Notes: a model not told the origin generated them from the sequence alone. Positions 22,428-36,084 are shown, numbered from the stretch's first letter. The stretch is 44,406 nt of DNA from Atribacteria bacterium SCGC AAA255-G05 (GCA_000405605.1 ASPA01000005.1:1-44406); one strand, 5' to 3'. Translations and numbers: made by a program.

Positions 22428-23864
22428 TTACATTAATCCTTTTATCTTTGACTTTAGTTTCTGGTAAACTTCTATAGGAATAGGTAATGGTTTATGATTA
22501 GTTAGAATTTCTTCTACTTTTTCCCGTGCTCGAGTTCTGGTATCTTTGCTTCCTAAATTTTCCCATTCAGTTCTATGTTGACGATCTGCAAGAGTGGGGA
22601 AATATAATTCTTTACGCATATTTTGTACTGTATGCATCTCGGCAAGAAAATTCCCAGCTGGACCAACTTTAGCAATTAAATCTTCTGCCAAGGTCTCTTT
22701 ATCTACTTTAATCCCTTGCACCATTCGCATAACCATCCCTAAAATATCATTATCAATTACTGCTTTTTCAAAACTGATAGTCATACAAAACTCTAAGTTA
22801 CCAGCAGCATCATGGATAAAATTCGCTCCTGACAAAGCAACAGCTAACGCGCTGATTGCCGATTCATATCCTGCTTGAGCATCAGGAATTTTGGAATCAG
22901 ACATTCCAGCAGTAGCATAATAAGGAAGTTTTACATTCTGAGCTAATTGGGCTACACCAGCATTTATAAGACCCGGCTCCGCTCCGGCTCCAAGATAAAT
23001 ACCTTTTTGCATATCCATAATAGAAGCGGTTGAAGCATATATAACCGGAGTTCCGGGGTTAACTAACTGAGCCAGGGTTACACAAGCCAAAGTCTCTGCG
23101 TTAATTAAAACTAAATCACCTGCTAAAGTAACTGGACCAGTTGCTCCGGTTAGAACTTCACTGGGGCAAGCTACCGGTAGACCTTTACGAGCAATCTCAA
23201 TTAGAAATTCAGTATAAGTATTTTCTAATTTTAAAGGACTCATGACACAAGTAATAAAAGAAATAAATGGACATTTTTTTAACTGCTCTGCACCTCCAGC
23301 AATTTCTTCTGCCATTTTAATAGTTTCCAGTAATCCTGCTTTATCATAGATACCTCCCATAATATGTTTGGAAGTATTGGAAATACCTGCGTAAAATCTA
23401 TTTACATCAACTGTTTCTTTGGGTAATTCTGTAGGATATAAAGGTAAGAGATAAAAATGAACATTATCTAAGGCATCAACTAACTTAGCAAATTGCGCAA
23501 CATCTTCTAAAGTAGAAGGTCTCTTTTTGTTAGTTTCCCAATCAAGTACGTTTAAAACAGTACCACCAGTCCCAAAATATACATTTGAACCTTCTAAAAC
23601 AAGATTATGTTTATCTTCTCTACCGTAAAGAATCACCTTGGAAGGAGCTGTGTCAATAGCATTTTCTACCATCTTATGGGGTATTTTTACTATACGCTTG
23701 TCAAAATCAACCTCTGCTCCTTTTTCTTTAAATATATCTAATGCTTCTTTACAGTTTACTTCCATCCCTACATTTTCCAAAAGTCGAAGTGATGTGTTAT
23801 GAATATCTTTGATTCCCTCTGGCGAAAGAGGTTTATATTGACCTCCCGGTAAACCACCTATCAT
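22428..23864 (-). CDS. MttB-superfamily methyltransferase, non-pyrrolysine member (substrate:corrinoid methyltransferase; substrate unknown)
   Basis: 478 uninterrupted codons with no in-frame TAG. Family pattern throughout (LSPEGIKDIHNTSLRLLENVGMEV, FGTGG, GATGPVTLAG, YYATAGMSDSK, GANFIHDAAG, GPAGNFL). GGAGG SD. Confidence 0.9.
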   Translation of the reverse strand: MIGGLPGGQYKPLSPEGIKDIHNTSLRLLENVGMEVNCKEALDIFKEKGAEVDFDKRIVKIPHKMVENAIDTAPSKVILYGREDKHNLVLEGSNVYFGTGGTVLNVLDWETNKKRPSTLEDVAQFAKLVDALDNVHFYLLPLYPTELPKETVDVNRFYAGISNTSKHIMGGIYDKAGLLETIKMAEEIAGGAEQLKKCPFISFITCVMSPLKLENTYTEFLIEIARKGLPVACPSEVLTGATGPVTLAGDLVLINAETLACVTLAQLVNPGTPVIYASTASIMDMQKGIYLGAGAEPGLINAGVAQLAQNVKLPYYATAGMSDSKIPDAQAGYESAISALAVALSGANFIHDAAGNLEFCMTISFEKAVIDNDILGMVMRMVQGIKVDKETLAEDLIAKVGPAGNFLAEMHTVQNMRKELYFPTLADRQHRTEWENLGSKDTRTRAREKVEEILTNHKPLPIPIEVYQKLKSKIKGLM

Positions 23865-23973
23865 TAACTTTACCTCCTAAAAATATCTTTTTATAAACAT
23901 ATAGTACATTATAATAACAGCTAAACTATAGTAATATATTGCTTCTATAGGTAATAAATTGCGAAAACATTTT

Positions 23974-24477
23974 TTACGGAATAAATTTGGAATATAGCTG
24001 CAATAGATATGTTTTAATTCTAAAATATTTTACATTTTTAAATTCTAAAAGCTCACCATCTTTGAATATCTTATACAAAAGAATTACTTTGTTATCGACG
24101 GTCAAATTATATTTGGCAATCACGCTGGACCTAATATAGAACTTCTCAATATCTTTATTTATATTATCTACAATGAAAAAATTATCCTGGTGTTTGAAAT
24201 TTTTATCTATCTCTGAAGGCAACCCTGCTCCTTGCCCTACAAATTTTGTACTAAGAAGGACGATATTCTCTTTGCCGGAATAAGCTCTAAAAGTCTCTGA
24301 AGTAGATGTTTTTTCCACAGAATGAGTATATTCAATAGTAAAATCAATCTTGTCTTTATAAGGAAATACTAAAATATTTTTTCTTTCGCCCTTCACCAAC
24401 AATACATCTTGAGGAGAGAAAAAGACCGCAAATAAGATAATTATAATCGCTGTAACTATATATTTCTTAATTTTCAT
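23974..24477 (-). CDS. DUF1850-domain protein (TAXI-TRAP-associated, function unknown)
   Basis: 167 aa with an N-terminal TM anchor. YTHSVEKTSTSETF...GQGAGLPSE resembles the DUF1850 core. Sits in its usual genomic context next to TAXI-TRAP genes. Confidence 0.65.
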   Translation of the reverse strand: MKIKKYIVTAIIIILFAVFFSPQDVLLVKGERKNILVFPYKDKIDFTIEYTHSVEKTSTSETFRAYSGKENIVLLSTKFVGQGAGLPSEIDKNFKHQDNFFIVDNINKDIEKFYIRSSVIAKYNLTVDNKVILLYKIFKDGELLEFKNVKYFRIKTYLLQLYSKFIP

Positions 24478-24545
24478 TTTTCTATTTTACCAATCTATTA
24501 ATCAAAAATAATTTGAGACTAATTTTCTACAAAAATCATGTTTTA

Positions 24546-25889
24546 TTATTTTAAACCTAATAATTCTCTTATGGTTAAATTCGATTTTTCAAAAGTCTTA
24601 ATATTATTCAAGATAGCTTCCTGCCTTTTTGATGAAATAATCCCATTAGTCTGCCACAAAAATTTAGTTACAATTTCTTGATAAGAAAAAGGATCAGCAG
24701 GACATCCTTTTGCTTGTGTCGGTTCAGAAATTATAAAACTCCCATCATTCAGATAAATTTTTAATAGTGCAGTATTAAAAGCCGGAAAACAATCTTCCCG
24801 TTCCTGGGAATAAACTAAATGAATTCTTTTTGCCATTTCTACTACTTTTTTATTTTTAATATTTTTCTTGCTTAATTGTTCTGCCCCCATTTTGTTATAC
24901 AAAATAATATTTGCCAGAACAAAAGGTATGCTATACTCAGCTTGAATATAATTAATGGGTTCAATATTGTTTAACGATGTAGCTTTTTTATGTGTAAAAA
25001 CTTCAATTTTTTCAATCTTTTGAGGATTAATATTATTTTTTTGTCTCAAATTAAAAAAGGCGTCGATGGGGGGATGCGACCATCTACAAGAAGTATAGCG
25101 TTTAAAATAGGTATCTAATATTTTATATTTTTCCCCCAAATCATTAAGGGAATAGCCTTTACTTTCTTCTTTATGTATCAACATACTCTCTACGCCAAGA
25201 AATCCTTTCTTGGCTAACACCGCTGCACTAATAGCTGTAGCCGCTGCCCAACCCATTGCTTCTTTTGTATTACTTCCATTTTCGATACTTTTTATTACTG
25301 GAGACAGGGGTGCATATGCTTCGGCAATTCCGAGTGCATTTAAAAAATCTTTCCCTGAAAAATTATATAATCTACTTAAGCCCGCTGCCGCCCCTATGAT
25401 AGCCCAGGTCCCTGCTCCAAAAAATCTATTCACTGTATTTTGAAAAATTAATTCACCGAAACGAATTCCAATATCATAAGCAATAATTACTGCTTCAATT
25501 AAAACAGTGGGAGAAACTTTTAAGCGCTCTCCTTCTGCTAATAAAGCAGGAAAAATTACTCCTCCGGGATGTCCGGCAGCTGACCTTACACCATCATCAA
25601 TATCCAAATCAGTTGCCATTGTTCCGTTTACGAAGGCAGCCCCGAAAGTTGAAAGAGTATTTCCATCTATCCATACAGAACTCTCAGTGCCTGGGAAGGA
25701 TTCTTTTACATAATCATAAACTATATTGCTTGAATCAGTATTGCTACCGGCAATTCCACAACCTAATATGTCTAATAAACATTTTTTAACTAACTTAATG
25801 ACTTCCGGAGGCAATAAATGATATTGAAGGTTTTCGTAATAATTAAGTAATTGTCTTTTTTTTTGGAAAGAAATATTAATTTCTTTCAT
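24546..25889 (-). CDS. MmgE/PrpD-family protein
   Basis: 447 aa. N-terminal LLDILGCGIAGS and ATDLDIDDG..AAGHPGGVIFPALLA motifs and the two-domain length are typical of the 2-methylcitrate dehydratase family. Confidence 0.85.
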   Translation of the reverse strand: MKEINISFQKKRQLLNYYENLQYHLLPPEVIKLVKKCLLDILGCGIAGSNTDSSNIVYDYVKESFPGTESSVWIDGNTLSTFGAAFVNGTMATDLDIDDGVRSAAGHPGGVIFPALLAEGERLKVSPTVLIEAVIIAYDIGIRFGELIFQNTVNRFFGAGTWAIIGAAAGLSRLYNFSGKDFLNALGIAEAYAPLSPVIKSIENGSNTKEAMGWAAATAISAAVLAKKGFLGVESMLIHKEESKGYSLNDLGEKYKILDTYFKRYTSCRWSHPPIDAFFNLRQKNNINPQKIEKIEVFTHKKATSLNNIEPINYIQAEYSIPFVLANIILYNKMGAEQLSKKNIKNKKVVEMAKRIHLVYSQEREDCFPAFNTALLKIYLNDGSFIISEPTQAKGCPADPFSYQEIVTKFLWQTNGIISSKRQEAILNNIKTFEKSNLTIRELLGLK

Positions 25890-26001
25890 ACCCCATCCTT
25901 TTTTATTTACTTTAAATTTAATCGAGTAAAAAGTAATTGATTAATTCATACTAAAAAAGAGGAGCAAATTTGCTCCTCTTTTTTAGTAATTGTAAACTAT
26001 T

Positions 26002-26961
26002 CTATTTTATTAGCCCAATTTCTTTGTAATATTTTTCAGCACCTGGGTGAAGAGGGATACTCATTCCGTTAAGGGCTGTTTCTACGGTAATATCCCTACC
26101 TCTTACATGGGCAGCTATTAAATCTTCTGTATGCTCAAATATTACTTTTGTAATATTATAAACTAAATCTTCGCTTAAATCAGTGGAACAAACTAACATC
26201 GCAGGTATTGCTACTGTCATTACATCTTCTTCAAAACCAGGATATGTTCCAGCTTTAATTAGATGATCAGCACAATAAGACATTTTTGCCTTTAAAGCAT
26301 CTAATTTTTCTCTATCTATGGCAATAATTCTAATTTGTTTTTGGCTGGATATATCTACTATTGCTGCTGTAGGTACTCCCGCCCATATTACTCCTGCACT
26401 AGTTGTATTATCCTTTAACCCTGTAGCCACTTCTGAAAAACTAAGGAAATCTTCAGTGATATCATCATAACTCATATTATAAACGCTAAGAATTTCTCGC
26501 GCCATAACTTCGGTGCCACTTCCAGGTGCACCAACCGCAACTTTTTTGCCTTTTAGATCTGAAACACTTTTTATCCCAGAGCTTTCTAATACCACTAATT
26601 GTACGGCTTCAGGATATAAGCAAGTTATTCCTGCCATATTCTTTGCCGGTTCGCCTTCAAAACTTCCAATACCTTCAAAAGCATTATAGGTAACATTTGC
26701 AGCGGTTATGGCTAATTCTGCGCTACCGCTTTTAATAAGGTTACAATTTGCTACAGTTGCGCCGGTAGCCTCTACCGTACTGCTTACACTTTTAATATTG
26801 GCATTTATAATACTGGAAATTGCTCCTCCAATAGGGTAATAGGTTCCAGCCATTCCACCGGTAGCTATTGAAAGATACTCGGTAGCAGATACAGAAACGG
26901 TTAAAAATACTACTAACAACAAACTTAATAGTAAAACACTATTTACTTTAAATCTTTTCAT
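26002..26961 (-). CDS. TAXI-family TRAP transporter solute receptor
   Basis: 319 aa with a signal peptide. IATGGMAGTYYPIGGAIS, VEATGATVANCNLI and KVAVGAPGSGTE motifs. Confidence 0.85.
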   Translation of the reverse strand: MKRFKVNSVLLLSLLLVVFLTVSVSATEYLSIATGGMAGTYYPIGGAISSIINANIKSVSSTVEATGATVANCNLIKSGSAELAITAANVTYNAFEGIGSFEGEPAKNMAGITCLYPEAVQLVVLESSGIKSVSDLKGKKVAVGAPGSGTEVMAREILSVYNMSYDDITEDFLSFSEVATGLKDNTTSAGVIWAGVPTAAIVDISSQKQIRIIAIDREKLDALKAKMSYCADHLIKAGTYPGFEEDVMTVAIPAMLVCSTDLSEDLVYNITKVIFEHTEDLIAAHVRGRDITVETALNGMSIPLHPGAEKYYKEIGLIK

Positions 26962-26995
26962 TTATTTTCCTCCTAAATATTTTTTTATGATAATA

Positions 26996-28843
26996 CTATA
27001 CTATGGCAATTTCTCTTTCTTTTCGCTGTTTTTGAGCAAAATAGATTATTGCCAAAATAACAATCCCGATTAAATCTGTAATCACGCCATAAAATATCAA
27101 GCTAACTGATGCAAATACTAACAACCCCCTTTCATACCACTTGCAGTTGGTTATAAAATAACCTCCCAAACCAACTCCAAGACATAATATACCTATTAGT
27201 GATGTAGAAATGGTCAACATTAAAGGAATAAAACTTGCTTTGTACATTAAAAGATTGAGATTATATATAAACAAAAATGGCACTAAAAATGCCGCAAAAG
27301 ATAATCTAAGCCCTTGTAATGCAGTTTCTACACTGGGACTACCAGCTACTGCTGCAGCCGCATAAGAAGTTAATGCAACCGGCGGGGTTACTTCTGCTAT
27401 TACTCCATAATAGAATATAAATAAGTGTGCTGCTATGAGAGGTACGCCTAATTTTACTAAAACTGGTGCTGCTATAGTAGCTAAAACAATATATTTGGCA
27501 GTTGTAGGAAGACCCATACCTAATATTATTGAAGTAATCATGGTTAGTAAAAGAGTAATGAAAAGATTATTTCCTGATATAGTTAAAATAATTTGAGAGA
27601 ATTTCAATCCTACACCAGTTAATGATACTATCCCGATAATTATTCCACAAACTGCACAAGCTGCTGTGATTGAAATAGAATTATATGCAGCCAATTCAAA
27701 AGTCCTGAGAATATCTTTAATGCTTAATCTTGTTTCTTTTTTAAAACTGACCATTATTATCATGGTAATAGTGGAATATAATGCTGCCTTCAGAGGGCTA
27801 AAACCCATCATTAACAAAAAGATAATTGTAAAAATAGGAATCAATAATGGTAAACTATTTTTGATAGATTCTTTAATATCAGGTAAATCTTTCCTGGGTA
27901 TTGCTTTTAAATCTAATCTTACTGCTTCGAAATGTACCATAATAAAAATCGAAATAAAGTATAGAGTAGCAGGGATAAATGATGCTTTCACAATTTGAAG
28001 ATAGGGAATACCAGTCATCTCTACCATTATAAAGGCTGCCGCACCCATTATGGGAGGCATTATTTGTCCGCCGGAAGAAGCAGCTGCTTCAACGCCTCCT
28101 GCAAAGGAAGGCTTATAACCCAATTTCTTCATCAAAGGAATTGTAAAAGAACCCGTAGTTACTACATTAGCCAAAGAACTTCCCGATATTGTTCCCATTA
28201 AGCCACTCGCAACAACCGCAGTTTTTGCCGGTCCTCCTCTTGAACCACCGGTTAAAGCATAAGCAAGGGTTATAAAACGCTTCGCGCCTCCAGTACTTTG
28301 CAAGAAAGCGCCAAAAAGTATAAAAGCAAATATATATGTAGACATAACATATAAGGGAACTCCAAAAATCCCTTCAGTTGCTAAAAATAAATGCTCTGCA
28401 ATTCTGTTTATTGAATATCCTCTATGACCGATTATTATAGGCATATAAGGACCTAAAAACCCGTATAAAATAAAGACTATTGCTACAATAACTAGTGGTG
28501 TCCCAATAGATCTTCTTGCTGCCTCTAACACTATTAACGTTGCAATAATTCCTAAAATAATATCGGTGGATGTTGAAGCGGCCGCTCTATTCGCCAAAGC
28601 TTTAAAATTAATAATAAGGTATGAGATGCAAATGATACTTAAAATTATAAATACTAAATCATAAATGGGTAATTTATTCTTATCATTTTTTGAAAATTTT
28701 GTACGGTAACATAAAAAGGCAAGAGTTAATCCAAATCCAAGAGTTAACGGTCTTTGAACTAATGATGGAAATAAGCCAAAAGCAGAAGTATAAACCTGGA
28801 ATATTGTCCAGGATATAGCTATGACTTTTACTAATAAATCCAA
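26996..28843 (-). CDS. TAXI-type TRAP transporter fused (DctQ-DctM-like) permease
   Basis: At least 615 aa, polytopic. The ORF-track start is TTG. The frame stays open and family-like up to 28924 (..QELVTEKLEDIYNFRKYNNF..) with only ATT/CTG candidate starts behind a GAAGGGAAG SD. The true start is probably upstream of 28843. Confidence 0.85.
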   Translation of the reverse strand: MDLLVKVIAISWTIFQVYTSAFGLFPSLVQRPLTLGFGLTLAFLCYRTKFSKNDKNKLPIYDLVFIILSIICISYLIINFKALANRAAASTSTDIILGIIATLIVLEAARRSIGTPLVIVAIVFILYGFLGPYMPIIIGHRGYSINRIAEHLFLATEGIFGVPLYVMSTYIFAFILFGAFLQSTGGAKRFITLAYALTGGSRGGPAKTAVVASGLMGTISGSSLANVVTTGSFTIPLMKKLGYKPSFAGGVEAAASSGGQIMPPIMGAAAFIMVEMTGIPYLQIVKASFIPATLYFISIFIMVHFEAVRLDLKAIPRKDLPDIKESIKNSLPLLIPIFTIIFLLMMGFSPLKAALYSTITMIIMVSFKKETRLSIKDILRTFELAAYNSISITAACAVCGIIIGIVSLTGVGLKFSQIILTISGNNLFITLLLTMITSIILGMGLPTTAKYIVLATIAAPVLVKLGVPLIAAHLFIFYYGVIAEVTPPVALTSYAAAAVAGSPSVETALQGLRLSFAAFLVPFLFIYNLNLLMYKASFIPLMLTISTSLIGILCLGVGLGGYFITNCKWYERGLLVFASVSLIFYGVITDLIGIVILAIIYFAQKQRKEREIAIV

Positions 28844-29490
28844 AAAATTGTTATATTTACGAAAATTATAAATATCTTCTAATTTTTCTGTGACCAGTTC
28901 TTGCTTATTATCTTTCAGCTTAATTTACTTCCCTTCTATCAATATTTTTATAAACAATTATAGAATTACTTTTTTCTGCACATATACTTATTTATTGTGT
29001 TTCTATCTTAGAGTAAACAATTTATAATGTGCTGATACAAAAATATTTTTAGAGATAATAAAAACACCAGAAAGTTCTTTTCAATAAAACTATGCTTACG
29101 TTAGTTCCTTAATGCTGTCTTACGTTATAAATAAATATATAACTATGTTTTCTAATAAGTGGAATCCATGTTTTCTTAAACCTTAGATAGAAGGCTAAAA
29201 TAGTCTATGTAAAAATTCTGCAAATACAAAATAAATTTTAAAAAATAATATTAAAAATTTATACGTGATGGATGAAAATAGCGTAATTATTACAGAAACA
29301 ATTTAATGTTTAAATTATATAAACATTGTTTACTGAGATATTGTAGTATATTGCTATATCAGGTAATTTGTTGCTTAATTAATGTCTTTATCAATTTAAT
29401 TTACTTATACTAAAAAATGGATTAGATAGTGGAGACCCTAATGATAAAAATTGAGGGGTTATTTATAATATTGGAAGCAAGCTGTTTTGC

Positions 29491-31007: not shown

Positions 31008-31036
31008 TTGACAAAAAGCTATCAAGTAATTATCAT
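31008..31036 (+). promoter_or_regulatory. Candidate sigma-70 promoter for the SSS symporter gene
   Basis: TTGACA (31008-31013), 17-nt spacer, TATCAT (31031-31036). About 45 nt upstream of the ATG at 31083. The ORF-track TTG start at 31008 is this -35 box. Confidence 0.5.
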
Positions 31037-31082
31037 AAATGTTAATTGTTTTAAACTTAGATTAAATAGGGTAAATAAAATT

Positions 31083-32477
31083 ATGATGTTTTTTTTAAAG
31101 CCTCTTCATATAATTGGTTTCCTTTCAGTCATTCTTTTAATAACCGTAGTAAGTGTCCTTTCAGGGAAAAAAGTCAAATCAGCAGATGATTTTATTACAA
31201 GCAAAAAAATGTCAAATTCCTGGATGGTAACCGGTACAATTACAGGTGTTTTAGTGGGCGGAGCTTCTACTATTGGTACTACTCAATTAGCTTTTCAATG
31301 TGGCATGTCAGCTTGGTGGTTTACTTTAGGTGAAGGGATTGCCTGTTTACTATTATTATTTTTAATTAAACCTTTAAAAGAAAGCGGAGTCCAAACCATC
31401 CCTCAATTTTTATCTCAAAGTTATGGCCAAAAGAGCATTATTCCTTCTTGTTTTTTTTCTTCTGCTGGAATGTTTATTTCTGTAGTTGCTCAACTGTTAT
31501 CTTTAGTAGCTCTTATCAGTAGCATGTTTACTTTAAATCCTTTATTAATAGCTTTTATCGGAATTTTATTAATGGCAACTTATATTATCTTCGGAGGAAT
31601 TTGGGGAAGTAGTTTAGTAGGAATAATAAAAATAATTTTAATTTATACGTTTTTAGCTATGGCAAGTATTTTTTGTTATAAATCATTTGGAAGTATCAGC
31701 AATTTAAAAGATATTTTTCCTTACTATCCCTGGTTCAGTCTTTTTGGTCGAGGATTTATGGTTGATTCATCTGCTTTATTTTCAACCCTCGTAGGGGTAA
31801 TTTCTACTCAAACTTGTATCCAGGCTGTCCTATCAGGAAAAAATATCTCAGTCTCTCGTAAAGGAGTTTTATTAAGTGCTTTTTTAATTCCTCCCACCGG
31901 AATTGCCGGAATTTTAATAGGTTTTTACATGAGAATTAACTATCCTGATATTAATTCAGCTCAAGCACTTCCTCTTTTTATTATTAAGCATTTCAACCCT
32001 CTTTTAAGCGGTATGGCTTTAGCAACTTTACTAATTGCCGCAACTGTAACTGGAGCAAGTTTAATATTGGGAATAAGTACTATGTTTACCCGAGATATCT
32101 ACCCGAAATTTTTCCGCTTTAACGAAAAAAGCGCACTACTACTATCGAGATTAACAATAATAATTATCTTATTTATTGCCCTTTTGTTTGTGAAACAAAA
32201 TTTATATTCTCTTATCATAAAATGGAATTTCCTTTCAATGGGATTAAGAGGGACTACAATTTTTTTCCCATTTTTGGCTTCAATTTTCTTTAAGGATTAT
32301 GTTTCTCTCTCAGCTGGTTTTTGGGCTATTACCATAGCCCCGCTATCAATTATAATTTGGAAAATAATATACCCCGAAGGATTAAATCCCGTTTTTATTG
32401 GCCTAACAATAAGTTTATTTATTTTAATAGGAATCTCTAAAATTTCTCTTTATAAGGAAAGAAAAAAATCCTTTTAG
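31083..32477 (+). CDS. Sodium:solute symporter (SSS) family transporter
   Basis: About 464 aa from MMFFLKPLH. About 13 TM segments, GGASTIGTTQLAF-type motif. The 25 codons upstream in the ORF track overlap the promoter and are not hydrophobic. Confidence 0.8.
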   Translation: MMFFLKPLHIIGFLSVILLITVVSVLSGKKVKSADDFITSKKMSNSWMVTGTITGVLVGGASTIGTTQLAFQCGMSAWWFTLGEGIACLLLLFLIKPLKESGVQTIPQFLSQSYGQKSIIPSCFFSSAGMFISVVAQLLSLVALISSMFTLNPLLIAFIGILLMATYIIFGGIWGSSLVGIIKIILIYTFLAMASIFCYKSFGSISNLKDIFPYYPWFSLFGRGFMVDSSALFSTLVGVISTQTCIQAVLSGKNISVSRKGVLLSAFLIPPTGIAGILIGFYMRINYPDINSAQALPLFIIKHFNPLLSGMALATLLIAATVTGASLILGISTMFTRDIYPKFFRFNEKSALLLSRLTIIIILFIALLFVKQNLYSLIIKWNFLSMGLRGTTIFFPFLASIFFKDYVSLSAGFWAITIAPLSIIIWKIIYPEGLNPVFIGLTISLFILIGISKISLYKERKKSF

Positions 32478-32666
32478 AGAATAACAAATAAATATTATCT
32501 TTAGTTTTTCTAATCTTATATCAAGGATATTATCTTATAACAGACTTTCTATTTTTCATTTCACCCGCTCCTCTTATAATTAATAAAATCCTATTACTTT
32601 TTTATTCCATACATTATCACTATAATCGTAAATTATTTTTTTATAATACTTTAAAATTTAACCTCA

Positions 32667-33376
32667 CTGAAACCCTTACAAAATAAGGCTTTCCGCCCAC
32701 ATCTAAGATAAGCCCTTTTAAGCGCCTATTTTAAAAAATATGAACAATCACTCCAGGCCACCTTAAAAAACGTAACTACGACAATATTTTTCTGAAAGCC
32801 TTATATCGCAAGGCTTTCAGACACGTAAAAATAGAGATTTTAGCCCTTTTTTGTCTCATTTTCTCTCTATTTTAGAAGCACTATCACTATCCTATATAAA
32901 AAAACGCTGAAACCCTTATGTTTGCTTTGTTTTAAAGCCTTCCTATTTTTTATTGTAAAAACTAATAATCCTCTAATTCCATATATATCTACTTCCCTTG
33001 TTTAGATAAAAACCTGTTCTCTGTTCCCCCTCTTTTTCTCCTTTACTGTAAAAAATGGTCTTCCTGAAAGCCTTGTATAATAAGGGTTTCAAAGGTAGGC
33101 TGCGTATTTTTGATTTTAAGCGACTATTTTGCCTCAACTTATGGTTTTACCCTCGGAAAATAGGTGTTTTTTGGCCTATTTTCACCCCCCCCCCAAAAAA
33201 ACCTAAAAATGGCTTCCTGTAAGGTTTACAGAATTTCGGGGAGGTCAAAAAAGACTAAAAAAAATGTCGTAATTACCGATTTTTCGAAAATTGAAGCCCG
33301 TTTAAAGGCACTCTACGTGCGTTAAAAGGATATTCCTGAAGAGGGTCTGAAAACCTTGTATAAAAAAGGCTTTCAG
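32667..33376. repeat. Array of 5 (6 with a variant) related palindromic hairpins in an ORF-free stretch
   Basis: CTGAAAGCCTT-N7-AAGGCTTTCAG is perfect at 32792-32820. Near-perfect copies at 33347-33376 and 33064-33092. Weaker copies at 32667-32694 and 32907-32940. Variant CTGTAAGGTTTACAG at 33217-33231. Spacing is 115-157 bp. Confidence 0.6.
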
Positions 33377-33411
33377 GGGGGATAAATATATTAAAATAAC
33401 AACACATCCTA

Positions 33412-33560
33412 TTTTTTCTATGGTTCAGCTTTCCATTTCGCGAGGCCTTCCTTTAGGACATCTATCTATAGCAATACCTAAAACTCAACTATCCGGTAAG
33501 GAACTCCTAAGACTCAATAGTTTGTCCGCTAAAAGTTATCGAACTATTAACCTGGTAACC
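33412..33560 (-). repeat. Internally deleted paralog (copy A) of the structured-RNA-like element at 34745-35205
   Basis: 33412-33472 is near-identical to 34745-34805, with 2 substitutions in the ~50-nt core. The next ~60 nt are diverged but alignable. 33527-33560 aligns with 35171-35205. The 306-nt core of copy B is missing. Confidence 0.55.
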
Positions 33561-33623
33561 TTCTATTTATTTAATTTAAAAACAAAAATGTTAATTGTCT
33601 AGGAAAATGGGATGGGTACCTAT

Positions 33624-34637
33624 TTATTTCAAAAGTCCTCTCTTAATCATGGAATCAACTTCATCGTTTGCACCCACATGGTGGATAGTGATATTTGGAT
33701 ATTCATTTTTGAAAACACGGAATACTTCATCTACGAAAGCTTGCCCTACAGATACGACTCCTTTGAAATCTAGAATGATTGTATTGAATTTTTCAAGACC
33801 CATTAATAATCGTTTTGCTTCTGACCTTGATACGTGAGGATCATTCGGATCCCCGCTTAACGCCACTGCTACGATTGTTTTTCCGAATCCAATCTCTTGG
33901 TCGGCGTATTGATCGAACACGCCTTTTGGTGTCTTTTTTGAATCGAGCGAGAGAACCATTTTAATGAGCGTGCCTTTTTTGAAATCTTCATTTTTTTCTG
34001 GCGAAAAAAACCAATCCTCGTTTTGAAATGTATAGAATATATCACTTGAAAGGATTGAAAAGCTATCAAACATCCTGGATGTAAAGAATATCCCCTCTCC
34101 TGTATGGTGTAATGGATCAGTTGTGAATTTACCTTTTGACAAATGGAGGATGGATTCCTTGATGGAATCTAAGTGTAGCGCTTTTTGAATTTTTTTGAAT
34201 ATCCCGATTCCATTATCCTTGATTATAATATTTAAAGTATTATTGCTAACTTCTATTTCCGTAATAATTGTGGTTCCTTTTGAATGGTCGATGGCATTAT
34301 TAAAAATCTCGGTAAAGCCGTAAGCACAAATTCTATAAATATTTTCCGGGTAGGATAAAATCATTGGTTTAACATATTTTAACCAAACTCTGTCTTCTGC
34401 TATACCAGGTTTTATTTTTTCGATGAATTGAATATATTTTCCATCAGCAAGAAAGTAATGTGTCCACCTCGTGCGCCCCGTTTTGATGATATTTCCATTT
34501 TCTACTTCTCTTATTAGGCATCGATGGGCTCTCTGCCTTGAAAATCCAAATTTCTTGGCCAGAACTATTGCAATGTCCCCTGGATGATTTTCTACATTAT
34601 CGAGGATAAATTTTTGTATAGTACTGCTTTTATTCAT
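33624..34637 (-). CDS. wHTH - GHKL (histidine-kinase-like) ATPase - STAS-like (DUF4325) fusion protein
   Basis: 337 aa. N-terminal wHTH-like 60 aa. GHKL N-box (EIFNNAIDHS), G1 (IKDNGIGI), G2-like (HHTGEGIFF). C-terminal ILDFKGVVSVGQAFVDEVFRVF is typical of DUF4325/STAS. No SD; an apparently leaderless promoter lies upstream. Confidence 0.8.
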   Translation of the reverse strand: MNKSSTIQKFILDNVENHPGDIAIVLAKKFGFSRQRAHRCLIREVENGNIIKTGRTRWTHYFLADGKYIQFIEKIKPGIAEDRVWLKYVKPMILSYPENIYRICAYGFTEIFNNAIDHSKGTTIITEIEVSNNTLNIIIKDNGIGIFKKIQKALHLDSIKESILHLSKGKFTTDPLHHTGEGIFFTSRMFDSFSILSSDIFYTFQNEDWFFSPEKNEDFKKGTLIKMVLSLDSKKTPKGVFDQYADQEIGFGKTIVAVALSGDPNDPHVSRSEAKRLLMGLEKFNTIILDFKGVVSVGQAFVDEVFRVFKNEYPNITIHHVGANDEVDSMIKRGLLK

Positions 34638-34642
34638 AAATT

Positions 34643-34718
34643 AATTATAATCTATTTGTAGTTCTTTGTAAACCCCCAAATCATTCTTTGTAAACCCTGC
34701 TCAGGACTTTTTGTAAAC
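34643..34718 (-). promoter_or_regulatory. Leaderless-type promoter overlapped by three iteron-like direct repeats
   Basis: The - strand reads GGTTTACAAAGAACTACAAATAGATTATAATTAATTTATG: -35 TTTACA (34671-34666), 17-nt spacer, -10 TATAAT (34648-34643), 6 nt, then ATG (34637). GGGTTTACAAAGAA occurs at 34674-34661 and 34696-34683, and GGTTTACAAAAAG at 34718-34706, 22-23 bp apart. Confidence 0.5.
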
Positions 34719-34744
34719 CTTGATTATTTAAACAGGGATACATC

Positions 34745-35205
34745 TTTTTTTCTACGGTTTAGCTTTCCATTTCGCGAGGCCTTCCTTTAGGACATCTATC
34801 TATTATAGTAATATCTAAAGCCTCAACCATCTAGTTAAGAAACTCTTCAGATCCTATGGTTGTCACGGTAGGACAGCCAGTTACCTGACTGCCCCCGCAC
34901 AGATCCTCTTTAGAATCTCACATTTAGCGATTCTTTTGTATAGGCTTCCGTTGCAGAAATGACGGCGCCATCTGCATTCATCTTTATTTACGAGGCTGTA
35001 TCATTCACTTTTGGGAAGTACGGTCTTCCCTATGGCCTATCTGTTTCCCTGTGTACGCTTCATCTAATGGTTACCCATTTTGATGCAACGCTTGGTATGG
35101 GTGGTTGGTTAGACCTTGCCCAGCAAGGACTTTCACCCTGCAAGACATATAAAACTTCTTGGCGCTCTTTCGCTAAAAGTTTTCGAATTATTAATCCGGC
35201 ACACC
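34745..35205 (-). ncRNA. Unclassified structured-RNA-like element (copy B), about 460 nt; strand assigned from GNRA loops
   Basis: GC-richer than its flanks. On the - strand there are two GUAA-capped hairpins (34874-34891; 35061-85 with an internal loop). Further clean hairpins at 35013-35030 and 35114-35128. No - strand ORF of 60 aa or more. The + strand ORF of copy A is broken in copy B (ATG to ACG, CAG to TAG). No known RNA family recognised. Confidence 0.4.
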
Positions 35206-35249
35206 TCGTTTCCTGTCACATTGACTGGCTGCTTCATCATTTCAAAATA

Positions 35250-35276
35250 AAAAGTCTCCTGTAAAAGGAGACTTTT
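35250..35276. terminator. Intrinsic-terminator-like hairpin, usable on both strands
   Basis: AAAAGTCTCCT-gtaaa-AGGAGACTTTT, an 11-bp perfect stem. T-run TTTTTAT on the + strand; TTTTTATTTTG on the - strand. Confidence 0.6.
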
Positions 35277-35324
35277 TATCGACCGGCATCCCGATCTAAA
35301 TTAACAAGCTTATCGTACAATTGT

Positions 35325-35352
35325 ATTATACCTTAGAGAAATGATTTGTCAA
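35325..35352 (-). promoter_or_regulatory. Consensus sigma-70 promoter on the - strand
   Basis: - strand TTGACA (35352-35347), 16-nt spacer, TATAAT (35330-35325). Both hexamers match consensus exactly. Divergent from the UDG gene. Confidence 0.55.
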
Positions 35353-35496
35353 TAGTTTAAAACTTTTCTCTTAATTCCTTGCTAAAAAGTATAAAAAAAT
35401 GGTAAAATTATAAAAATATTTAATGACTTAAAATAATTATCAGTAGTTTTCCATTAATATTTACTTCGATAATTAAAATAAAGGGGAGTAAAATTG

Positions 35497-36084
35497 ATGT
35501 CTAAAAATTTTAATCCACTTACGATAGAAGAAGTTGCAGAAGAATGTAAAAGTTGTGAAAAATGTCCTTTGTATCTTTCTCGCACAGAGGTTGTTCCCGG
35601 GGAAGGAAATGCAAAATCTAAAGTAATGTTTATCGGAGAAGCTCCGGGAGAAGATGAAGACCTCAATGGTAAACCTTTTGTGGGTAAAGCTGGCCAACTT
35701 TTGACTAAAATTTTGCAGTCAGTTGATATTAAAAGAGAAGATATATTCATCACTAATATGTTAAAATGCCGACCGCCTGCTAATCGTAATCCTTCAAAAA
35801 GCGAAATAGAAACCTGTCTTCCTTATTTGGAAACCCAGATCGCTTTAATCAATCCCAAAATTATCGTTACTCTGGGTAATGTCCCCACTCAACATCTTTT
35901 AGAAACCACTCAGGGAATCACTAAAATTCGAGGCCAGTGGTTTGATTGGTTAGGAGGAATAAAGATATTTCCTATGTTTCATCCCAGTTATTTATTAAGA
36001 AACGAAGCAACTTTCCCGGGCAGCCCCAAAGAACTAACCTGGAAGGATATAAAAACTCTCAAAAAAGCTATTGATGAACTTTAA
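35497..36084 (+). CDS. Uracil-DNA glycosylase, family 4
   Basis: 195 aa from the ATG at 35497 (SD AGGGGAG 8 nt upstream). CEKCPLYLSRTEVVPGEGNAKSKVMFIGEAPGEDEDLNGKPFVGKAGQLL and HPSYLLRN motifs. Confidence 0.9.
   Translation: MSKNFNPLTIEEVAEECKSCEKCPLYLSRTEVVPGEGNAKSKVMFIGEAPGEDEDLNGKPFVGKAGQLLTKILQSVDIKREDIFITNMLKCRPPANRNPSKSEIETCLPYLETQIALINPKIIVTLGNVPTQHLLETTQGITKIRGQWFDWLGGIKIFPMFHPSYLLRNEATFPGSPKELTWKDIKTLKKAIDEL

Follow-up and report, generated by a model that had tools for sequence, protein, structure and literature searches.

At positions 32478-35352 of a 44,406-nt stretch of DNA from Atribacteria bacterium SCGC AAA255-G05 (GCA_000405605.1, ASPA01000005.1:1-44406; the window), a block with little coding sequence lies between genes for an SSS symporter and UDG. 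An initial annotation, made from the sequence alone, had proposed that this block is a self-contained module of RNAs and a protein. Comparison with related loci (L numbers below) indicates that it is most probably a mosaic of mobile-DNA debris around one self-regulated gene, which together replaced a polX gene, and that there is no RNA-protein machine. The mosaic would consist of a cassette (35204-33390), a group II intron within the upstream repeat copy of that cassette, the repeats H1 and H2, and ~170 nt of unique promoter and hairpin DNA. The comparison established what each part is, where it begins and ends and how often it occurs, and showed that the parts are distributed independently of one another. 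What appeared to be an undescribed RNA-protein system would resolve into known kinds of selfish DNA, and we infer that the gene is the only working part of the block.

All features listed in the initial annotation were found at or near the positions it gave (Table 1). The coding share of the block is ~35% (1014 of 2875 nt), and the block is free of any open reading frame (ORF) of recombinase size, in line with the reported absence of a recombinase. The repeats described at three scales are also present: 13-nt direct repeats, palindromes of ~27-29 nt, and paralogous stretches shared by two elements named B and A. The view that RNAs, hairpins and protein form one functional system was not borne out. 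The annotation had named independent occurrence of the parts across genomes as the finding that would speak against it, and this is how the parts occur. The best matches of UDG and its flanking genes are metagenome-assembled genomes (MAGs) of Atribacterota, which places the window in an Atribacterota genome.

The intron remnant and the A-type repeat

Element B, described as a structured stretch of ~460 nt (35204-34729), is real and has a fold z-score of -4.8. Judged by its sequence, it is a decayed group II intron that splits one copy of a dispersed repeat, here called the A-type repeat. The Rfam model RF02005 (group-II-D1D4-6) matches window positions 35133-34885 on the minus strand at 98.1 bits (gathering threshold 49 bits), with the whole model (1-225) covered. 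D1 and D6 are retained. Domain VI, with a bulged A and the 3' end AY, is present as GGGGCAGTCAGGTAACTGGCTGTCCTACCGTGAC at 34895-34862, and the same sequence aligns to the D6 portion of RF00029 in L032. Relative to sibling copies of 636-642 nt, ~336 alignment columns are missing at 34908|34907. The deletion is bounded by short repeats (GGRTCTGTSCGGGG) and takes the distal ribozyme domains as well as domain V except its last 5 nt. No RF00029 match to domain V was found in the window at E<=1, and the window copy encodes no intron reverse transcriptase (RT)/maturase. Without domain V or a protein encoded by the intron (IEP), the window copy cannot splice or move, as follows from what is established about group II intron catalysis.

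Fuller copies of the intron are found in L032 (the same locus, 96% identity), L018 and L027. In them, domain V is of textbook form (GAGCCCAGTGCGGTAGTTCCGCACGCTGGGATC) and domain VI ends in CCTACCGTGAC; RF00029 (D5-D6) aligns end to end in L032 at 36.7 bits, just below its gathering threshold of 40. An exact 32-mer that runs from the 3' part of D5 into the beginning of D6 occurs in at least 120 metagenome contigs (L046-L165). The 120 contigs scanned contain 126 intron copies, most of which are flanked by halves of the A-type repeat. Standard copies are ORF-less and 636-642 nt long, and are accompanied by many deletion derivatives (154-523 nt) and by longer copies of 1.6-2.7 kb. Two copies of 1880 nt (L119 and L139), located at other, non-repeat sites, encode a group II RT/maturase of 440-452 aa (TIGR04416 at 357 bits, cut-off 300 bits, plus RVT_1), and their ribozymes match RF02005 at 123-128 bits. 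The IEP of these copies has no match to an endonuclease (En)/HNH domain. Three copies lie head to tail in L140:6651-8563 (...GTGAC|GAGCGCC...).

Intron-less copies of the repeat read ...TTTTAGCGGAA AACCTATAGG..., and both halves flank the intron in most of the 126 copies. These shared halves identify B as a repeat copy (35204-35168 plus 34861-34729) split by the intron, and A as an intact copy. The initial annotation had called A a mini-copy, and its similarity to B is confirmed: A matches the 3' end of B over 58 nt at 97% and over 106 nt at 85% identity, and ~29 nt of A recur at the 5' end of B. One and the same repeat copy contains the intron in L018:1-482 and is without it in L001:4875-5035, the flanks being otherwise 94-96% identical. 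This pair is direct filled/empty evidence of intron gain or loss. Upstream of the gene, the repeat copy contains the intron in the window, L032 and L133, whereas L001, L016 and L018 have an intron-less copy there, which indicates that the intron has been mobile into this site. The A-type repeat would thus carry the preferred homing site of the intron (...TTTTAGCGGAA|AACCTATAGG...). The intron would have retrohomed into the upstream repeat copy and later decayed through the internal deletion that removed domain V.

Two other interpretations of B were rejected. In the first, B is a complete ORF-less intron starting from GTGTG at 35204 and A is an internally deleted mini-intron; the sibling copies showed D5/D6, and the filled/empty sites put the intron ends at 35167 and 34862. 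In the second, the 337-aa ORF of the block is located inside intron domain IV in place of the RT; the intron ends upstream of the operator.

The A-type repeat itself was defined by iterated nhmmer searches started with A, which gave a 238-nt consensus with the terminal inverted repeats (TIRs) AAATAGGGACACATCC...GGATGTGTCCCTATTT. The TIRs measure 16-35 nt, the upper value being reached in L012. A shorter subtype is without ~55 nt near the left end, and the overall size is ~170-240 nt. There are 254 copies in ~1 Mb of fetched contigs; in the window, none would be expected by chance. Of the 243 copies in loci whose retrieval did not depend on the gene, 234 (~96%) are located away from it. A pattern for the repeat core matched 30 genome-assembly contigs, most of them from Atribacterota and several from the same MAG. 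The repeat resembles miniature inverted-repeat transposable elements (MITEs) in being small, noncoding and TIR-bounded, and its dispersed copies between genes number in the hundreds. Its behaviour is that of a MITE-like element, a label that refers to TIRs, size and copy number only, and its movement could equally be recombination between dispersed copies. The core as a structured RNA was rejected: its RNAalifold energy is -2.3 kcal/mol with few pairs showing double changes, and it has no Rfam match at E<=1.

Two side observations concern this repeat. The motif (A)AGGGGACGGTTCT(T), probably a further repeat family in these genomes, recurs beside A-type and H2 copies (L035, L028, L036, L078:11205-11240, L130 and L145). 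At L138:1264-3776, ORFs of 273 aa and 383 aa lie between two matches to the repeat terminus, and the 383-aa ORF has a SIR2-like motif (FILGAGAS) at its N terminus; the arrangement may represent a further cargo cassette enclosed by the A-type repeat.

ORF-less introns have been called rare in bacteria (review PMC4424553). Among known cases, RmInt1 homes into ISRm2011-2 in Sinorhizobium meliloti, and ORF-less introns proliferate in Thermosynechococcus elongatus (PMC2882425, PMC4424553). The family described here is similar in its RF02005 ribozyme core with D5/D6 in sibling copies, its many ORF-less copies, its site-specific insertion into a repeated element and its filled/empty polymorphism; some copies also code for an RT/maturase that has no En and could function in trans. 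Unlike these introns, the window copy is dead, having neither domain V nor an IEP, and its 5' end is GAGCG. The host site also differs from that of RmInt1, as it is a ~200-nt noncoding TIR repeat and not an insertion sequence (IS) gene. The scale of the expansion and the MITE-like target are unusual: a ~640-nt ORF-less intron has multiplied massively in Atribacterota, with a MITE-like repeat as its homing target, and some contigs contain tandem arrays. The insertion site, a few nucleotides past a possible stem-loop and T-run in the repeat consensus, is reminiscent of class C group II introns, a class with En-less IEPs. A literature search for such introns in Atribacteria gave nothing relevant.

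Replacement of polX, the cassette and the hairpin region

The syntenic relative L045 follows the window colinearly as far as 32558 and resumes at 35378, with a DNA identity of 84-90%. Its UDG fragment is 94% identical over 80% of the query. Between these points, L045 contains polX (L045:5951-7678), which encodes a 575-aa family-X DNA polymerase with a PHP domain. The last ~9 codons of polX are still present in the window, indicating that polX was replaced; a tblastn search of polX against the window revealed no remnant beyond them. The block had been described as an inserted segment, and the comparison of relatives agrees, with polX in L045 at the place of window 32559-35377. Its edges, annotated at 32478 and 35352, are independently placed by L045 at ~32559 and ~35377. 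Other relatives have, directly upstream of the conserved UDG promoter, a DpnII restriction-modification system with a UPF0236 transposase, or an HTH-SocA_Panacea antitoxin-like gene (loci compared: L041:2344-3132, L042:2967-7706, L045 and the window segment). The different accessory genes at one site mark the spot upstream of UDG as a hot spot in Atribacterota. No tRNA or tmRNA genes usable as integration targets were found.

The recurrent unit consists of repeat, operator, gene and repeat, and is found at 87-98% identity in at least four genomic contexts in Atribacterota: the window, the pur operon (L183), AbiE (L016/L186), L133 and an island with DarTG (L001/L018). L183 encodes an identical protein and is 98.4% identical at the DNA level over 34857-33389. 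The homology stops exactly at the right TIR of A, the pur operon is next, and the H region described below is absent. In L016/L186 the shared unit extends from the upstream repeat's left end as far as the right end of the downstream repeat, and AbiEi/AbiEii follow. L133 shares 35206-33472 and then has a protease gene before the H region. Recurrence in different contexts indicates that the unit behaves as a mobile cassette. As a separate observation, L183:1560-1640, located after the cassette and upstream of purE, looks like a purine riboswitch by sequence appearance only (...CGTATAAACTCTTGAATATGGCAAGGGTGTTTCTACC...).

The suggestion of a non-autonomous mobile element therefore holds for the core at 35204-33390, which is found in several genomic contexts, and fails for the whole block. 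In the same way, the term self-contained fits only a cassette in which one gene is enclosed by two MITE-like copies; the leader, the H repeats and the intron remnant ride along with it or lie next to it as separate elements. As in MITE-bounded composites, a cargo gene lies between two A-type copies, and the unit so formed is found again at other loci. It departs from such composites in the direct orientation of the two copies and the degenerate left end of the upstream copy.

Several points weigh against reading the block as a mosaic of this kind. No clear target-site duplication is seen at A-type copies, whose flanks are A/T-rich, and no cognate transposase was found between matching TIR pairs in the contigs fetched. 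According to the filled/empty-site junction, the 5' end of the intron is GAGCG in all copies, not the canonical GUGYG. The strong promoter and terminator at 35352-35247 are unexplained by the mosaic and could belong to a small RNA gene. Finally, all Atribacterota copies of the gene that were seen (88-100% amino-acid identity) keep a repeat copy at the same upstream place, and it is possible that this copy has been co-opted, for example as an insulator or terminator.

A broader version of the last point, in which both flanking copies act in cis, the upstream one as an insulator or read-through terminator and the downstream one as a terminator or stabiliser, appears rather improbable. It would fit the constant junctions (window, L016, L032 and L183): the distance from the end of the upstream copy to the ATG is ~110 nt, and the downstream copy abuts the stop codon with its left TIR. 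In addition, the terminal repeats of the A-type repeat are able to form a long paired stem. A single ancestral cassette explains these junctions equally, however, as all copies are 87-99% identical. L001 and L018 have only a 65-nt downstream fragment at another distance from the stop codon, and homologues outside Atribacterota do without the repeats.

The hairpin region comprises ~830 nt of noncoding DNA. The palindromes reported there are real, four or five in number and ~27-29 nt long, and occur only in this block within the 44-kb window. H1 and H2 are built from degenerate units of ~125-150 nt, each starting with a palindrome. H2 is present in 13 other contigs, among which only L032 and L133 have the gene in the fetched DNA. 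The whole H region adjoins an unrelated 198-aa gene in L132 and L133, and a similar palindrome is found in the polX-UDG spacer of L045. We regard H1 and H2 as generic intergenic repeats of Atribacterota.

Other candidate identities of this region were rejected. H2 as a structured RNA has a covariation term of +0.23, giving no support for a conserved fold, and no Rfam match at E<=1. A small protein gene was dismissed on ORFs that fall in different frames in different copies. The hairpin spacings of 125, 272 and 283 nt and the conservation of the 'spacers' in other loci do not agree with a CRISPR array, nor do the irregular spacing and conserved intervening sequence agree with attC sites. At 33185-33205, the window copy of H2 contains a C10A8 tract in place of the short CTC...AAAA of other copies; the tract may be a slippage product.

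These distributions bear on the proposal that the block is one regulatory, defence or addiction system, in which RNAs from B, A and the hairpins are either sensed by the ATPase-STAS protein or act as its guards. In all Atribacterota loci seen the gene is flanked by the repeat, the fold of B is better than that of shuffled controls, and a link between gene and H region exists in the window, L032 and L133. The fold of B is nevertheless that of a group II intron remnant without domain V, and at the same site the intron is missing in L001, L016 and L018. The repeat copies are, for 96%, not near the gene, the cassette occurs without the H region (L183) and the H region without the gene. The homologues in Patescibacteria and on viral contigs do without all these elements, neither the repeat core nor H2 shows covariation, and there is no PADLOC match. 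We consider such a system very unlikely.

Table 1 Features of the block and its flanking genes, in window coordinates.
Feature	Position	Strand	Details
SSS symporter gene	31008-32477		
polX remnant, last ~9 codons	32530..32558	-	MKNRKSVIR* in the window, LKNKKYI* in L045; left edge of replaced segment
H1, noncoding repeat module	32660..33012		two or three of the same palindromes as H2
H2, dispersed noncoding repeat, ~330 nt	33055..33385		between two ~27-nt palindromes
A-type repeat copy 2 (mini-copy A), complete, intron-less	33393..33625	-	TIRs 33625-33604 and 33415-33394
ORF, 337 aa	33624..34637	-	Pfam, AF2, Foldseek
Gene promoter, TTTACA-17 nt-TATAAT	34644..34672	-	11/12
Three direct repeats GGTTTACAAAGAA	34662..34722	-	at -82, -59 and -37 from ATG
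A-type repeat copy 1, 3' part (3' exon)	34729..34861	-	begins AACCATAGGATC; degenerate right TIR; nhmmer model positions 94-236
Group II intron remnant, 306 nt	34862..35167	-	GAGCGCC...CCGTGAC
A-type repeat copy 1, 5' part (5' exon)	35168..35204	-	ends ...CTTTTAGCGAAA
Perfect 14-bp inverted repeat ATAAAAAGTCTCCT / AGGAGACTTTTTAT	35247..35279		5-nt loop, flanking A/T runs; inverted-repeat search
Sigma-70-type promoter, TTGACA-16 nt-TATAAT	35325..35352	-	12/12 consensus match
UDG gene	35494-36084		

The gene, its protein and its operator

The protein was annotated as a fusion of a winged helix-turn-helix (HTH), a GHKL ATPase and a STAS domain, and Pfam, an AlphaFold2 (AF2) model and Foldseek confirm this architecture. 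Pfam assigns DUF4325 (STAS-like, E = 3.8e-13) and HATPase_c (E = 1.2e-5), and the AF2 model of the 337-aa protein has a mean pLDDT of 81.6. In Foldseek searches against the PDB, the central domain is matched best by SpoIIAB and RsbW (probability 1.0, target TM-score 0.66-0.78). The C-terminal domain resembles STAS proteins (RsbS, stressosome, prestin, YchM), and the N-terminal ~75 residues resemble the winged helices of MarR, ArsR and Z-alpha. Residues of the N, G1 and G2 boxes (E110, N113/N114, H118, D141xGxG145 and G180xG182) are invariant in 40 homologues. S296 is conserved in at least 90% of homologous sequences and would correspond to the phosphorylated STAS serine (SpoIIAA Ser58).

Like the pairs SpoIIAB/SpoIIAA and RsbW/RsbV, the protein combines a GHKL ATPase bearing N, G1 and G2 motifs with a STAS domain. 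Unlike in these pairs, a single chain contains both partners, preceded by a winged HTH, and the gene is solitary, with its own three-repeat operator and no sigma factor partner evident. The fused SpoIIAB-like ATPase and STAS domains would work as a partner switch within one molecule, determining the DNA-binding or oligomeric state of the protein.

The -10 hexamer of the gene promoter ends 6 nt before the ATG, so that the mRNA is predicted to be leaderless; a distance of 6-8 nt is conserved in homologues. The third, promoter-proximal GGTTTACAAAGAA repeat supplies the -35 hexamer TTTACA. The repeats keep their position and sequence in the L007 and L008 homologues, which are 74-80% identical at the amino-acid level and located in unrelated contexts, while the spacers vary. 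TTTACA-type direct repeats ~22 nt apart are also found upstream of several relatives of 37-40% identity. This conservation indicates that the operator belongs to the gene and not to the block. The winged HTH would bind the three direct repeats, which are two helical turns apart and overlap the -35 hexamer, resulting in autoregulation.

The same repeats had suggested the remnant of a plasmid iteron replicon or partition locus, as three evenly spaced 13-nt direct repeats lie beside the gene of a DNA-binding ATPase. This origin is barely credible. The repeats coincide in part with the -35 hexamer of the gene itself and accompany it across phyla in chromosomal settings, and the GHKL/STAS fold is not a Rep or ParA fold. 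The block contains no Rep or Par protein, and a tblastn search of PLSDB (72,556 plasmids) gave no match for the ORF.

More than 7000 homologues were found, most of them in Patescibacteria. The best 120 are 65-99% identical, mostly from Patescibacteria, and annotated as 'DUF4325 domain-containing protein'. Homologues outside Atribacterota are without A-type repeats and occur in varied contexts; copies of the gene that have no such repeat number in the thousands. The DUF4325 literature consists of three incidental mentions, in which no experimental characterisation was found, and the protein is not a documented member of any characterised system. It represents a huge uncharacterised family in which the halves of a partner switch are joined to a DNA-binding domain under a conserved, predicted autoregulatory operator, making it an easy biochemical target.

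The contexts of the gene raise the question of a role in conflict. In L001-L003 it is located in a defence island with DarTG, a restriction endonuclease, TIR and AbiE, and AbiEi/AbiEii are directly downstream in L016/L186. The same hot spot in relatives holds DpnII restriction-modification or the Panacea antitoxin. Seventeen IMG/VR contigs (L166-L182) encode relatives at 37-40% identity; in the two examined, which are prophage-like, the gene lies beside an IS-disrupted integrase (L167) or beside two CI-like S24 repressor genes (L170). Identities of 65-80% across phyla suggest horizontal spread. A single-gene conflict module (anti-phage, abortive infection, or prophage immunity or addiction), for which the repeats are only the vehicle, would be consistent with these contexts, but we hold it to be unlikely. 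The ORF matches none of 5027 PADLOC models at E<=0.01 and nothing in GenBank phages, and it contains no recognisable effector domain (nuclease, TIR or pore former). In Patescibacteria the gene is found among housekeeping genes (L007-L010), and the evidence of association is anecdotal rather than statistical.

Such a module can be pictured, tentatively, as an autonomous one-gene conflict or immunity unit of protein, operator and leaderless promoter, with the single-chain partner switch as a sensor-repressor. It might have spread horizontally among Patescibacteria, Atribacterota and prophages, and in Atribacterota might be the cargo of a MITE-bounded cassette that lands in defence hot spots.

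The promoter-hairpin stretch and neighbouring genes

To the right of element B, the sigma-70-type promoter lies inside the variable segment, within the unique promoter/hairpin DNA. The inverted repeat at 35247..35279 looks like a bidirectional intrinsic terminator from its sequence. The terminator scan did not flag the hairpin at 35279-35247, as the A/T runs were counted into the stem. Promoter and hairpin are ~45 nt apart (window 35245-35352) and together would yield a transcript of ~70 nt. The predicted transcript also contains a second small hairpin (GATCGGGATGCCGGTC). No sequence similar to 35205-35377 was found in ~1 Mb of related contigs. The stretch at 35245-35352 could be a small RNA gene or the fossil of a donor locus.

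Elsewhere in the window, ~5.6 kb (23865-29490) contain DUF1850, PrpD/MmgE, a TAXI-type solute-binding protein and a fused TRAP DctM permease. The counterpart in L045 is a ~360-bp spacer between mttB and a PocR/AraC regulator, and a PrpD/MmgE-type gene is located on the opposite side of mttB. This segment may be an ordinary metabolic insertion or rearrangement. Rfam PYLIS_3 matches positions 22805-22904 on the minus strand at 62 bits, within an unbroken 478-aa ORF of the MttB family (22428-23864). Since this ORF has no in-frame stop, it looks like a non-pyrrolysine MttB homologue, and the PYLIS_3 match reflects sequence similarity.

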